Origin: Escherichia coli | GTDB lineage: Bacteria > Pseudomonadota > Gammaproteobacteria > Enterobacterales > Enterobacteriaceae | Assembly: GCF_024298765.1 (NCBI RefSeq) | Contig: NZ_CP101210.1 | Direction: 5' to 3' (one strand) | DNA: 64,000 bases | Shown here: piece by piece, positions 12,203 through 16,878 of the stretch | How the letters are laid out: each line of letters starts with the position of its first letter | Position numbering within the stretch: the first letter of the stretch is position 1 | Translations under genes and position numbers: made by a program | Notes under the pieces: generated by a model | Databases searched by the model: none | What the model saw: only the letters and a program-made list of their open reading frames with translations | What the model was told of the DNA's origin: nothing

Positions 12203-12774
12203 GGTGGGCGATTCTAATTAGCCAACAGGATTCGCGCCACTCATTTTTCTATGCTTATATTTAGTTTTGCACCTTATTACTTCACTACGTGATCACTTTA
12301 TTGATGGTTATTAAACCAATCACCAGCAAGAAGTGAAAAAACTGTGAGTAAGCGGGTGATAAATGGTAAAAGTCATCTTGCTATAACAAGGCTTGCAGTG
12401 GAATAATGAGGCCGTTTCCGTGTCCATCCTTGTTAAAACAAGAAATTTTACGGAATAACCCATTTTGCCCGACCGATCATCCACGCAGCAATGGCGTAAG
12501 ACGTATTGATCTTTCAGGCAGTTAGCGGGCTGCGGGTTGCAGTCCTTACCGGTAGATGGAAATATTTCTGGAGAGTAATACCCAGTCTGTTTCTTTGATA
12601 ATTGCGCTGTTTTTCCGCATGAAAAACGGGCAACCGACACTCTGCGCCTCTTTGAGCTGACGATAACCGTGAGGTTGGCGACGCGACTAGTCACGAGGCC
12701 ATCGGTTCACACCCGGAAAGGCGTTACTTTGCCCGCAGCTTAGTCGTCAATGTAAGAATAATGAGTAAGTTACG
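12203..12774 (+). promoter_or_regulatory. rne promoter region and long structured 5' leader
   Basis: ~570-nt ORF-poor spacer upstream of rne; the leader of rne is known to mediate RNase E autoregulation. Confidence 0.6.
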
Positions 12775-15700
12775 ATGAAAAGAATGTTAATCAACGCAAC
12801 TCAGCAGGAAGAGTTGCGCGTTGCCCTTGTAGATGGGCAGCGTCTGTATGACCTGGATATCGAAAGTCCAGGGCACGAGCAGAAAAAGGCAAACATCTAC
12901 AAAGGTAAAATCACCCGCATTGAACCGAGTCTGGAAGCTGCTTTTGTTGATTACGGCGCTGAACGTCACGGTTTCCTCCCACTAAAAGAAATTGCCCGCG
13001 AATATTTCCCTGCTAACTACAGTGCTCATGGTCGTCCCAACATTAAAGATGTGTTGCGTGAAGGTCAGGAAGTCATTGTTCAGATCGATAAAGAAGAGCG
13101 CGGCAACAAAGGCGCGGCATTAACCACCTTTATCAGTCTGGCGGGTAGCTATCTGGTTCTGATGCCGAACAACCCGCGCGCGGGTGGCATTTCTCGTCGT
13201 ATCGAAGGCGACGACCGTACCGAATTAAAAGAAGCACTGGCAAGCCTTGAACTGCCGGAAGGCATGGGGCTTATCGTGCGCACCGCTGGCGTCGGCAAAT
13301 CTGCTGAGGCGCTGCAATGGGATTTAAGCTTCCGTCTGAAACACTGGGAAGCCATCAAAAAAGCCGCTGAAAGCCGCCCGGCTCCGTTCCTGATTCATCA
13401 GGAGAGCAACGTCATCGTTCGCGCATTCCGCGATTACTTACGTCAGGATATCGGCGAAATCCTTATCGATAACCCGAAAGTGCTCGAACTGGCACGCCAG
13501 CATATCGCTGCATTAGGTCGCCCGGATTTCAGCAGCAAAATCAAGCTGTACACCGGCGAGATCCCGCTGTTCAGCCACTACCAGATTGAGTCGCAGATTG
13601 AGTCCGCCTTCCAGCGTGAAGTTCGTCTGCCATCCGGTGGTTCCATTGTTATCGACAGCACCGAAGCGTTAACCGCCATCGACATCAACTCCGCACGCGC
13701 GACCCGCGGCGGCGATATCGAAGAAACCGCGTTTAACACCAACCTCGAAGCTGCCGATGAGATTGCTCGTCAGCTGCGCCTGCGTGACCTCGGCGGCCTG
13801 ATTGTTATCGACTTCATCGACATGACGCCAGTACGCCACCAGCGTGCGGTAGAAAACCGTCTGCGTGAAGCGGTGCGTCAGGACCGGGCGCGTATTCAAA
13901 TCAGCCATATTTCTCGCTTTGGCCTGCTGGAAATGTCCCGTCAGCGTCTGAGCCCATCACTGGGTGAATCCAGCCATCACGTCTGCCCGCGCTGCTCCGG
14001 TACCGGTACCGTGCGTGACAACGAATCGTTGTCGCTCTCTATTCTGCGTCTGATCGAAGAAGAAGCGCTGAAAGAGAACACTCAGGAAGTTCACGCCATT
14101 GTTCCTGTGCCAATCGCGTCTTACCTGCTGAATGAAAAACGTTCTGCAGTGAATGCGATTGAAACTCGTCAGGACGGCGTGCGCTGTGTGATTGTGCCAA
14201 ACGATCAGATGGAAACCCCGCACTACCATGTGCTGCGCGTGCGTAAAGGGGAAGAAACTCCAACCTTAAGCTACATGCTGCCGAAGCTGCATGAAGAAGC
14301 GATGGCGCTGCCGTCTGAAGAAGAGTTCGCTGAACGTAAGCGTCCTGAACAACCTGCGCTGGCAACCTTTGCCATGCCGGATGTGCCGCCAGCTCCAACC
14401 CCAGCTGAACCTGCCGCGCCTGTTGTAGCCCCAGCACCTAAAGCTGCAACGGCAACACCAGCATCTCCTGCACAACCAGGGTTGTTGAGCCGCTTCTTCG
14501 GCGCACTGAAAGCGCTGTTCAGCGGTGGTGAAGAAACCAAACCGGCCGAGCAACCAGCACCGAAAGCAGAAGCGAAACCGGAACGTCAACAGGATCGTCG
14601 CAAGCCTCGTCAGAACAACCGCCGTGACCGTAATGAGCGCCGCGACACCCGTAGTGAACGTACTGAAGGCAACGATAATCGCGAAGAAAACCGTCGTAAT
14701 CGTCGCCAGGCACAGCAGCAGACTGCCGAGACGCGTGAGAGCCGTCAGCAGGCTGAGGTAACGGAAAAAGCACGTACCACCGACGAGCAGCAAGCGCCGC
14801 GTCGTGAACGTAGCCGCCGCCGTAACGATGATAAACGTCAGGCGCAACAAGAAGCGAAGGCGCTGAATGTTGAAGAGCAATCTGTTCAGGAAACCGAACA
14901 GGAGGAACGTGTACGTCCGGTTCAGCCGCGTCGTAAACAGCGTCAGCTCAATCAGAAAGTGCGTTACGAGCAAAGCGTAGCCGAAGAAGCGGTAGTCGCA
15001 CCGGTGGTTGAAGAAACTGTCGCTGCCGAACCAATTGTTCAGGAAGCGCCAGCTCCACGCACAGAACTGGTGAAAGTCCCGCTGCCAGTCGTAGCGCAAA
15101 CTGCACCAGAACAGCAAGAAGAGAACAATGCTGATAACCGTGACAACGGTGGCATGCCGCGTCGTTCTCGCCGCTCGCCTCGTCACCTGCGCGTGAGTGG
15201 TCAGCGTCGTCGTCGCTATCGTGACGAGCGTTATCCAACCCAATCGCCAATGCCGTTGACCGTAGCGTGCGCGTCTCCGGAACTGGCCTCTGGCAAAGTC
15301 TGGATCCGCTATCCAATTGTACGTCCGCAAGATGTACAGGTCGAAGAGCAGCGCGAACAGGAAGAAGTACAAGTGCAGCCGATGGTGACTGAGGTCCCTG
15401 TCGCCGCCGCTGTCGAACCGGTTGTTAGCGCGCCAGTTGTTGAAGAAGTGGCTGAAGTTGTAGAAGCCCCCGTTCAGGTTGCCGAACCGCAACCGGAAGT
15501 GGCTGAAACGACGCATCCTGAAGTAATTGCCGCCGCGGTAACTGAACAGCCGCAGGTGATTACCGAGTCTGATGTTGCCGTAGCCCAGGAAGTTGCAGAA
15601 CACGCAGAACCGGTGGTTGAACCGCAGGAAGAGACGGCTGATATTGAAGAAGTTGCCGAAACTGCTGAGGTTGTGGTTGCTGAACCTGAAGTTGTTGCTC

Positions 15701-15960
15701 AACCTGCCGCGCCAGTCGTCGCTGAAGTCGCAGCAGAAGTTGAAACGGTAGCCGCGGTTGAACCAGAGATCACCGTTGAGCATAACCACGCTACCGCGCC
15801 AATGACGCGCGCTCCGGCACCGGAATATGTTCCGGAGGCACCGCGTCACAGTGACTGGCAGCGCCCTACTTTTGCCTTCGAAGGCAAAGGTGCCGCAGGT
15901 GGTCATACGGCAACGCATCATGCCTCTGCCGCTCCTGCGCGTCCGCAACCTGTTGAGTAA
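12775..15960 (+). CDS. rne: ribonuclease E
   Basis: 1061 aa; N-terminal S1/catalytic domain, then Arg-rich and acidic low-complexity C-terminal scaffold. Confidence 0.97.
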
Positions 15961-15980
15961 TAATTAGCTCAAGTAATCAA

Positions 15981-16006
15981 GCCCTGGTAACTGCCAGGGC
16001 TTTTTT
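15981..16006 (+). terminator. rne Rho-independent terminator
   Basis: GCCCTGG-taactg-CCAGGGC followed by TTTTTT. Confidence 0.75.
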
Positions 16007-16033
16007 ATTTCAGGGGTAGCATCTTTGCTGTAA

Positions 16034-16062
16034 TGACATTAGCGTTACATGTACTGTATAAT
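16034..16062 (+). promoter_or_regulatory. putative sigma70 promoter with operator palindromes for the toxin-antitoxin operon
   Basis: TGACAT-17 bp-TATAAT; palindromes TAATGaCATTA and TACATGTA overlap it. Confidence 0.5.
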
Positions 16063-16093
16063 TATCATCCACGCAAAGCCGAAGGATATATTT

Positions 16094-16878
<785 letters not shown>

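Follow-up and report, generated by a model that had tools for sequence, protein, structure and literature searches.

We propose that the long open reading frame antisense to the 3′ half of rne in Escherichia coli is a non-coding shadow ORF, a by-product of a Leu/Ser-poor protein tail and of the codons chosen within it, and we assign this reading a probability of roughly 0.94. The ORF was taken from the list of open reading frames of the window, by which we mean the whole 64,000-nucleotide stretch of E. coli DNA that was analysed. It occupies 14266..15948 on the minus strand, begins with TTG, runs for 560 codons in frame -1, in codon register with rne, and was judged non-coding. The first-pass annotation had reported a 560-aa antisense ORF at exactly these coordinates, which we confirm, and had called it almost certainly not a gene, a judgement we share: the mirror frame is unconserved, broken in a minority of strains, and without a signal of selection, coding-type codon usage, Pfam family or consensus promoter upstream. 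We infer that no protein is made from it.

The host gene is rne, encoding ribonuclease E (12775..15960, plus strand; assigned from the ORF list and Pfam), in which the catalytic RNase E/G N-terminal half and the C-terminal scaffold form a single ORF of 1061 aa. Its product carries the Pfam domains S1 (residues 36-117), RNase_E_G (121-391), the thioredoxin-like RNase_E_G_Thio (403-488), and PNPase_C (PF12111, residues 1022-1058, E = 1.9e-17). The neighbourhood is that of E. coli rne, with rluC upstream and divergent, the rne5 5′ UTR element (Rfam RF00040, 12414-12750, plus strand), and flgL downstream. An inverted repeat followed by a T-run at 15979..16002 (plus strand), kept in K-12, marks the intrinsic terminator. 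The stretch searched, 14266-15966, is 100% identical to E. coli strain 104, and the rne annotation of strain 104 has the same length and relative position as that of the window.

Residues 530-1061 (14362..15957, plus strand; boundary from PMC4435900) form the intrinsically disordered, compositionally biased, non-catalytic C-terminal scaffold of RNase E. Six amino acids (A, E, V, P, R, and Q) account for 71% of this segment, and entropy averaged over 40-aa windows falls to 3.12 bits in the C-terminal half from 3.72 in the catalytic half. An RNQ-rich block at residues 601-720 contains 25% R, 16% E, and 15% Q, and an AEPV-rich block at residues 846-1020 contains 23% V, 21% E, 18% A, and 12% P. 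With residue numbers taken from PMC4435900 (Ait-Bara et al. 2015), all six microdomains described for E. coli RNase E lie at their published positions, five of them identical to K-12 and AR1 differing once. On the plus strand these are MTS, the membrane-targeting amphipathic helix (residues 565-582, 14467..14520); AR1, an arginine-rich RNA-binding segment carrying S633N relative to K-12 (604-644, 14584..14706); HBS (14929..14967); AR2, a further arginine-rich RNA-binding segment (796-814, 15160..15216); EBS, which is enolase-binding (15274..15324); and PBS, the PNPase binding site that coincides with the PF12111 match (1021-1061, 15835..15957). K-12 RNase E thus resembles the window protein in length (1061 aa), microdomain positions, and rluC-rne-flgL neighbourhood (PMC4435900). 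It differs at 12 amino acids in total, all within residues 559-999, with 2.4% nucleotide divergence in the C-terminal half of the gene, and unlike K-12 the window strain carries an inserted toxin-antitoxin pair downstream of rne.

The mirror frame has an offset of 0 relative to rne codons. Each of its codons is the reverse complement of an rne codon, and stops can therefore arise only from sense TTA, CTA, or TCA. Such codons occur in rne at positions 5, 70, 116, 151, 184, 222, 247, 299, 395, and 498, and none occurs from codon 499 to codon 1061. Codon 498, a TTA for leucine at 14266..14268 (plus strand), is the complement of the TAA that ends the mirror ORF; at the other end the frame is closed by an in-frame TAA at 15964..15966 (minus strand), just outside rne, giving a stop-to-stop open run of 564-565 codons. 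The 563-codon tail of rne holds only 15 Leu and 20 Ser, encoded by CTG, TTG, CTC, TCT, AGC, AGT, and TCG. This scarcity of Leu and Ser, together with the choice of other codons for them, leaves the mirror frame free of stops from codon 498 to the end of the gene. Skewed composition had been offered as the cause of the open frame, which holds in general; the cause can be narrowed to codon register, few Leu and Ser residues, and freedom from TTA, CTA, and TCA. In the mechanism we favour, the disordered scaffold contains few Leu and Ser residues, with codons that avoid these three triplets, and the opposite frame stays open as a consequence; the remaining length would be a lineage-specific chance outcome carried by most, though not all, E. 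coli.

How much of the length composition explains was estimated with a null model in which synonymous codons were resampled for the same protein and the longest in-register antisense run was scored. Resampling with the codon usage of the window gave a median of 235 codons and P(≥563) = 0.0016, and with that of the N-terminal half of rne, a median of 296 codons and P(≥563) = 0.038. Across these models, 3.1-5.4 stop-making codons were expected in the tail and 0 observed. Composition and codon preference account for about half of the mirror ORF length. Taken together, the medians and probabilities indicate a length that is mainly compositional plus a moderate tail event. In-register antisense runs in the window's other 53 putative genes reach 213 codons at most. 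We suggest, with modest confidence, that the full 563 codons are a tail event that is unremarkable genome-wide. Two points here count against our reading: the full run falls in the tail of this null, and stop-making triplets are unevenly spread, with 0 among the 35 Leu and Ser codons of the C-terminal half and 10 among the 83 of the N-terminal half (Fisher p = 0.03).

The tail had also been described as built of Arg-rich and acidic, Pro/Ala/Glu/Val-rich repeats whose length might vary between strains. Both peptides quoted in support are present, at residues 682-692 (14818-14850) and 893-911 (15451-15507), and the compositional bias is real, but the word repeats overstates it. Tandem Repeats Finder returned no rows for 14000-16100 at a minimum score of 30, and the repeats thus amount to compositional bias only. 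A repeat search recovered a loose motif of 37 nt that recurs within the Ala/Glu/Pro/Val-rich block (15429..15765, plus strand), with five copies at 62-73% identity and no tandem array. We considered and rejected a tandem-repeat (VNTR-like) coding region, given that the short repeats are dispersed and imperfect and that copy number does not vary frequently.

Differences in tail length between strains do exist, as had been anticipated, but they are rare. The tail region is at least 80% covered in 5,424 of 5,425 matching genomes. Aligning rne C-terminal regions across strains, a comparison proposed in the first-pass annotation, uncovered two in-frame E. coli deletions (12 nt and 609 nt), both bounded by short direct repeats; among 20 E. 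coli strains compared, 17 have the full-length tail (1061-aa RNase E), two lack 4 codons, and one lacks 203. The larger deletion, whose junction sequence was read, was found in a single genome, that of the clinical isolate GN4738, and leaves an rne product of 858 aa. Its breakpoints fall on a 13-nt direct repeat, ACCGGTGGTTGAA, with the left copy at 15000..15012 and the right copy at 15609-15621 (plus strand; spacing 609). This deletion removes the AR2 and enolase-binding microdomains and, on the other strand, 203 mirror codons. For the 12-nt deletion, a count based on a 66-mer across the junction is ambiguous, with at most 108 genomes in the ≥99% identity band, because partial alignments contaminate that band and only 2,192 matches cover the whole query. 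From species to species the tail differs widely in length, RNase E among the Enterobacterales sampled being mostly 1018-1258 aa long, with one insect-symbiont MAG at 563 aa. In natural isolates, then, the RNase E scaffold tolerates in-frame deletions.

The open mirror frame is not shared by related species. In E. albertii the longest in-register run is 243 codons, and the frame is interrupted by five stops, at codons 554, 571, 594, 725, and 828. It is likewise broken in Citrobacter (longest run 233 codons), Enterobacter (275-379), Klebsiella (175), and Yersinia (151-201), and all of these enteric runs come near the null median. The mirror run of high-GC Pseudomonas spans the whole of rne, 1033-1100 codons, which indicates that run length tracks codon usage.

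Within E. coli, the mirror ORF is open in most strains, not all. Mirror stops were found in 3 of the 20 strains compared, plus the type strain ATCC 11775 and ATCC 8739. Haplotypes were counted by exact 66-mers across 5,426 complete E. coli genomes, the query for codons 570/571 being the ATCC 8739 version. Of these genomes, 187 carry TCA at codon 594, ATCC 11775 among them, and 76 carry CTA-TTA at codons 570/571, including ATCC 8739; the mirror ORF is interrupted in at least 263. All mirror stops found within the species fall between rne codons 570 and 594, near the 3′ end of the mirror ORF, and at least 467 codons stay open, an observation that counts against our reading. TTA-571 and TCA-594 are common to E. 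albertii and minority E. coli haplotypes.

The mirror ORF shows no sign of purifying selection or of coding-type codon usage. Sense dN/dS in the C-terminal half of rne is 0.09-0.22; antisense dN/dS over the same half ranges between 0.46 and 1.8 within E. coli and comes to 0.97 with E. albertii and 1.44 with Citrobacter, values biased by sense-frame constraint in an overlapped frame, where a ratio of ~1 does not by itself prove neutrality. Against E. albertii, the C-terminal half has a sense dS of 0.58 and the N-terminal half one of 0.42; this lack of a reduction indicates no extra constraint at synonymous sites. Counting against this, in several pairs within E. coli C-terminal sense dS is somewhat below N-terminal, for example 0.047 vs 0.099 for O157. 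Codon-usage log-odds per codon are -0.455 for the mirror ORF, compared with +0.42 +/- 0.11 for real window genes and -0.29 +/- 0.08 for their antisense frames. The predicted product would consist of 14.8% R, 13.2% F, 12.5% L, 1.1% E, and 0.4% K, and a Pfam search with it returned no family.

Database entries that resemble the mirror protein trace back to rne itself. A search for homologues independent of rne found none; the five matches are all antisense translations of enterobacterial rne. These database proteins come from assemblies with fragmented rne, and one of them (P0001) represents 268 member sequences. In every E. coli RefSeq record examined, rne is the sole annotation under the match. 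One entry, P0004, joins the N-terminal half of RNase E to mirror sequence. A natural inversion was rejected here, the structure being a fold-back and not a clean inversion: its contig follows the forward strand as far as window position 14502, then turns back as the reverse complement of 14992 to 14426, and ends there. The fold-back sits at a 13-nt inverted repeat and re-uses 14426-14502 in both orientations. The join, which is in frame with RNase E and lies where the contig ends, is most likely an artefact of assembly. Its public entry reads "ribonuclease E, partial" with a final 184 residues that are antisense translation. We note that an essential, well-studied gene carries a 1.7-kb stop-free antisense frame, which calls for caution in annotation; gene callers output the mirror frame as a protein where sequencing errors break rne, and only there.

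Could the mirror ORF, or its first ~470 codons, nevertheless be a gene or proto-gene of recent origin, specific to E. coli, that overlaps rne in antisense and is translated weakly? The run exceeds 96-99.8% of synonymous resamplings, the frame is open in most sampled E. coli genomes, and claims of translation have been made for long antisense ORFs of related bacteria (PMC8850804, PMC7103648). An AGGAG also lies 10 nt upstream of an in-frame mirror ATG at 15921, although a consensus scan of this kind is weak evidence either way. Against such a gene stand the stops in E. albertii and all other enterics examined and in at least 263 E. coli genomes, the type strain included, an antisense dN/dS of ~1, a codon usage more antisense-like than that of ordinary genes' antisense frames, an implausible predicted composition with no Pfam match, and a clinical isolate that does without 203 of its codons. 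No sigma-70-like site was found by consensus scan (again weak either way) on the minus strand between flgL and the mirror ORF start, and the rne terminator hairpin lies 30 nt upstream of that start. Our literature search returned nothing specific on an rne antisense ORF or its translation. The name "rne" is absent from the text and 18 supplementary files of an E. coli survey of antisense overlapping genes, which is weak evidence since its tables may use locus tags. We therefore regard an overlapping gene as very improbable. Its most specific form, a very young E. coli-restricted proto-gene opened by loss of the ancestral TTA-571, TCA-594, and TTA-828, in which occasional read-through antisense transcripts would be translated into an Arg/Phe/Leu-rich polypeptide unshaped by selection, strikes us as less probable still.

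Two other explanations would leave the ORF without a coding function. The opposite strand might specify a non-coding antisense RNA that regulates rne, with the ORF incidental to it. Antisense transcription is widespread in E. coli, but the minus strand of the region offers a single promoter-like site, which is internal (15344-15316) and matches at 9 of 12 positions, no Rfam family was found there beyond the plus-strand rne 5′ UTR, and autoregulation of rne is known to act through that 5′ UTR element (RF00040, 12414-12750); we give this idea very little weight. Selection on rne itself, by avoidance of rare codons or of T in this segment to the benefit of translation speed or mRNA stability, could instead of drift have kept the tail free of TTA, CTA, and TCA, the mirror ORF again being a by-product. 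The uneven distribution of stop-making Leu and Ser codons between the two halves favours such selection, as does a T-poor sense strand in the tail (16.9% vs 21.5% T, and an AT skew that reaches +0.44). Nonetheless, 2-6 such codons occur in the tails of close relatives that share this protein architecture, E. coli lineages with one or two of them persist (ATCC 11775, ATCC 8739), and the sharing of TTA-571 and TCA-594 between E. albertii and minority E. coli suggests neutral polymorphism. We consider selection on rne unlikely, if less so than a gene or a regulatory RNA, and retain a non-coding shadow ORF arising from composition and codon choice as our interpretation.

Antisense genes proposed elsewhere provide a useful contrast. 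Like pop, antisense to ompA in EHEC (PMC7103648), and olg1/olg2 in P. aeruginosa (PMC8850804), the rne mirror is a long ORF lying wholly within an annotated gene, on its opposite strand, and exceeds most runs obtained by synonymous-codon resampling. The evidence for pop and olg1/olg2 comes from RNA-seq and Ribo-seq signals combined with stop depletion or purifying selection across strains, whereas the rne mirror is broken in sister species and some strains and has an antisense dN/dS of ~1. Its closer counterparts are frame -1 shadow ORFs. That long antisense ORFs arise as artefacts of codon usage is already well known, and a passage in Mir et al. 2012 (PMC3454372), citing Merino 1994 and Silke 1997, describes long frame -1 ORFs in these terms. 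The rne mirror shares with them an exact codon register with stops only from sense TTA, CTA, or TCA, a length that follows GC content and codon bias from one species to another, and the lack of conservation or selection of its own. It differs in being unusually long for a genome of ~50% GC (563 codons, vs ≤213 in the other genes of the window), because its host segment is a Leu/Ser-poor disordered region and not merely a highly biased gene. The rne tail thereby offers a worked example of how amino-acid composition, besides codon bias, sets the length of a frame -1 ORF.

The antisense frame opposite the 3' half of rne is present exactly as the first-pass annotation described it, a 560-aa stop-free ORF at 14266-15948 on the minus strand. 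The ORF list and frame analysis give it a TTG start and 560 codons, within a frame open from stop to stop over 564-565 codons. Its codon register coincides with that of rne (offset 0), so that each mirror codon reverse-complements a single rne codon and a mirror stop (TAA, TAG or TGA) requires a sense TTA, CTA or TCA. Ten such codons occur in rne, none of them beyond codon 498; codons 499-1061 contain zero, and codon 498 itself (TTA, 14266-14268) forms the stop of the mirror ORF. This C-terminal tail has only 15 leucines, encoded by CTG (11), TTG (3) and CTC (1), and only 20 serines, encoded by TCT (8), AGC (7), AGT (3) and TCG (2). Its sense strand is poor in T (16.9%, with AT skew up to +0.44), and fewer stops therefore arise in all three antisense frames. 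The unusual length of this shadow ORF is best explained by the shortage of Leu and Ser in the disordered segment that hosts it.

The host gene, rne (12775-15960, plus strand), encodes a ribonuclease E of 1061 aa with Pfam S1, RNase E/G catalytic, thioredoxin-like and C-terminal PNPase-binding domains, and sits in the expected rluC/rne/flgL neighbourhood. Upstream lies the rne5 5'-UTR element (12414-12750, plus strand; Rfam RF00040, 260 bits). Opposite this element runs a second antisense ORF (12320-12694, minus strand), a yceQ-like frame of 124 aa that lacks a Pfam match and is not annotated by RefSeq PGAP; one draft assembly calls it as a 106-aa gene (L091, 4546-4866). A search with the stretch 14266-15966 gave a 100% identical match on the E. 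coli strain 104 chromosome and matches in 5,425 of the 5,426 complete genomes of the species. The interval originally flagged, 14350-15960, corresponds to the non-catalytic C-terminal scaffold of RNase E, with its six microdomains at the residue numbers published for E. coli: the membrane-targeting helix (565-582), the arginine-rich RNA-binding segments AR1 (604-644) and AR2 (796-814), HBS (719-731), the enolase site (834-850) and the PNPase binding site (1021-1061) (PMC4435900). Five of the six match K-12 exactly; the sixth, AR1, has a single substitution, S633N, the only one of 12 amino-acid differences from K-12 to fall inside a mapped microdomain. All 12 fall between residues 559 and 999, leaving the catalytic half (12775-14268) unchanged; there dN is 0 against K-12, O157 and B2 strains at a dS of 0.08-0.12.

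The tail was also said to consist of biased repeats that may vary in length between strains. The compositional bias is strong, with A, E, V, P, R and Q making up 71% of scaffold residues, one block (residues 601-720) rich in Arg/Glu/Gln and another (846-1020) rich in Val/Glu/Ala/Pro; both peptides quoted in support are found in RNase E, at residues 682-692 and 893-911. Strict repetition did not stand, as Tandem Repeats Finder returned no tandem repeats in the tail; the best direct-repeat family there is a 37-nt motif in five copies of 62-73% identity. Strain comparison confirmed length variation in kind, but it is rare: 5,424 of the 5,425 matching genomes cover at least 80% of the region. The sole exception, the urine isolate GN4738, carries a 609-nt in-frame deletion (window 15001-15609, codons 743-945) through which AR2 and the enolase site are lost, leaving an 858-aa RNase E. 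This deletion falls exactly between two copies of the 13-nt direct repeat ACCGGTGGTTGAA (15000-15012 and 15609-15621). A shorter deletion, of 12 nt, takes out codons 981-984 between AGTCG repeats; its carriers include XDL, NRZ105822 and no fewer than six further genomes, and number at most 108. Between species, tail length and sequence differ widely, in agreement with published comparisons (PMC4435900).

How much of the mirror ORF is expected by chance was assessed by holding the RNase E protein sequence fixed and redrawing synonymous codons. Using the codon usage of the 54 putative window genes, the median longest in-register run was 235 codons, with P(>=563 codons) of 0.0016 and 5.4 stop-making tail codons expected; using that of the rne N-terminal half, the corresponding values were 296, 0.038 and 3.1. 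The tail contains none. Permutation of rne codons gave P = 0.006, and every other putative window gene has an in-register run of at most 213 codons. Because the null medians reach 235 and 296 against 563, roughly half of the length is due to composition and codon preference. The full length is moderately unlikely for a single gene, yet unremarkable as an extreme among several thousand genes.

The position of the full run in the resampling tail is one point in favor of a young translated proto-gene, a reading that we consider very improbable. A selectively maintained frame is expected to be open in relatives, but the mirror frame is interrupted in the enterobacterial relatives compared. The longest in-register open run is 243 codons in E. 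albertii, 233 in Citrobacter werkmanii, 275-379 in Enterobacter spp., 389 in Superficieibacter, 175 in a Klebsiella sp. and 151-201 in Yersinia, most of these enterobacterial lengths lying near the null median. It falls to 72-88 codons in low-GC Pasteurellaceae and spans the whole of rne (1033-1100 codons) in high-GC Pseudomonas and several beta-proteobacteria; run length thus tracks GC content and codon usage. In seven rne loci of Pseudomonas and other high-GC species (L040, L044, L046, L047, L050, L081 and L083) the frame is open over the full gene (870-1100 codons), far longer than the E. coli mirror ORF, and TTA, CTA and TCA are absent from both halves or present once at most. The frame is also closed within E. 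coli, as seen among 20 strains and, separately, ATCC 8739 and the type strain ATCC 11775. CTA-TTA occupies codons 570/571 in A23, CREC_5 and ATCC 8739, and TCA occupies codon 594 in PU-1 and ATCC 11775. By exact 66-mer counting in the complete-genome collection, TCA-594 occurs in 187 genomes and the CTA-TTA haplotypes in 74 and 2, so that the mirror ORF is broken in at least 263 of 5,426 E. coli genomes, a lower bound that counts only stop variants met among the compared strains. In E. albertii the mirror frame is stopped at rne codons 554, 571, 594, 725 and 828; of these, TTA-571 and TCA-594 also occur in some E. coli, and TTA-828 in Superficieibacter. This sharing suggests that the majority haplotypes of E. 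coli acquired the fully open frame recently, as a derived state.

Coding signatures also argue against a proto-gene. On a codon-usage log-odds scale trained on the other window genes versus their own in-register antisense frames, the rne tail scores +0.37 per codon and the mirror ORF an antisense-like -0.455 (reference: real genes, +0.42 ± 0.11; their antisense frames, -0.29 ± 0.08). By the Nei-Gojobori method, sense dN/dS over codons 499-1061 is 0.09-0.22, a sign of purifying selection on RNase E; in the mirror frame the ratio is 0.46-1.8 among E. coli strains, 0.97 when E. albertii is the comparator and 1.44 with Citrobacter. The overlapped half shows no drop in sense synonymous divergence from E. 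albertii (0.58, versus 0.42 in the N-terminal half), and within E. coli its values are somewhat lower in some pairs; these estimates are biased by the overlap and carry supporting weight only. In the predicted product, Arg accounts for 14.8% of residues, Phe for 13.2%, Leu for 12.5%, Cys for 4.1% and Trp for 3.4%; Glu, Lys and Pro are nearly absent, and no Pfam family matches it.

A consensus scan of the minus strand from flgL to the mirror ORF start found no sigma-70-like site. Upstream of the ORF, that strand carries the flgL terminator at 16931-16903 and, at 15979-16002, the hairpin of the rne terminator. An AGGAG 10 nt upstream of an in-frame ATG at 15921 is regarded as a chance match. On the plus strand between the two terminators are genes for a TacA-like (DUF1778) antitoxin (16094-16387) and a GNAT acetyltransferase toxin (16384-16878), preceded by a promoter-like site (16033-16062, 11/12 sigma-70-like match). 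This pair occurs in 686 of 5,426 complete E. coli genomes, always as one chromosomal copy, and is absent from K-12 and O157:H7; its closest solved structure is 7ak7 (E = 6e-76).

In all E. coli records examined, RefSeq annotates nothing but rne under the match. Querying 5.8 billion predicted proteins with the product of the mirror ORF gave five matches. Three of them, P0001-P0003, correspond to the mirror frame opposite E. coli rne, P0001 alone representing 268 member sequences; in the two contigs examined, those of P0001 and P0002, sequence errors break up rne and its neighbours. On a metagenome scaffold (L092) and in GCA_025847755.1 (L093), the called rne, flgJ, flgK and rluC are split or missing, presumably through indel errors, and the gene caller gives the mirror ORF instead. 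P0005 (38% identity) is probably the mirror of another, more distant rne. P0004, listed in NCBI and UniRef as 'ribonuclease E, partial' (760 aa; L091 5001-7282, contig LVRK01000076.1, reported for four samples), is chimeric, joining RNase E residues 1 to ~576 in frame to 184 residues of mirror translation. Its contig runs forward to window 14502, continues as the reverse complement of 14992-14426 and ends, the join lying at a 13-nt inverted repeat (14490-14502/14980-14992); this is most likely an assembly fold-back, and the reading frame passes through it without a stop only because the mirror frame is both open and in register.

Interruption in relatives and within E. coli, the mirror dN/dS, antisense-type codon usage and the lack of a Pfam family together support the earlier judgement that the ORF is 'almost certainly not a gene'. 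The text and 18 supplementary files of an E. coli antisense-gene survey do not name rne, and literature searches found nothing specific to an rne antisense ORF. In general, the length of frame -1 ORFs is tied to GC content and codon usage (PMC3454372; PMC8850804). The mirror ORF of rne is a textbook frame -1 shadow ORF, already explained by known principles.
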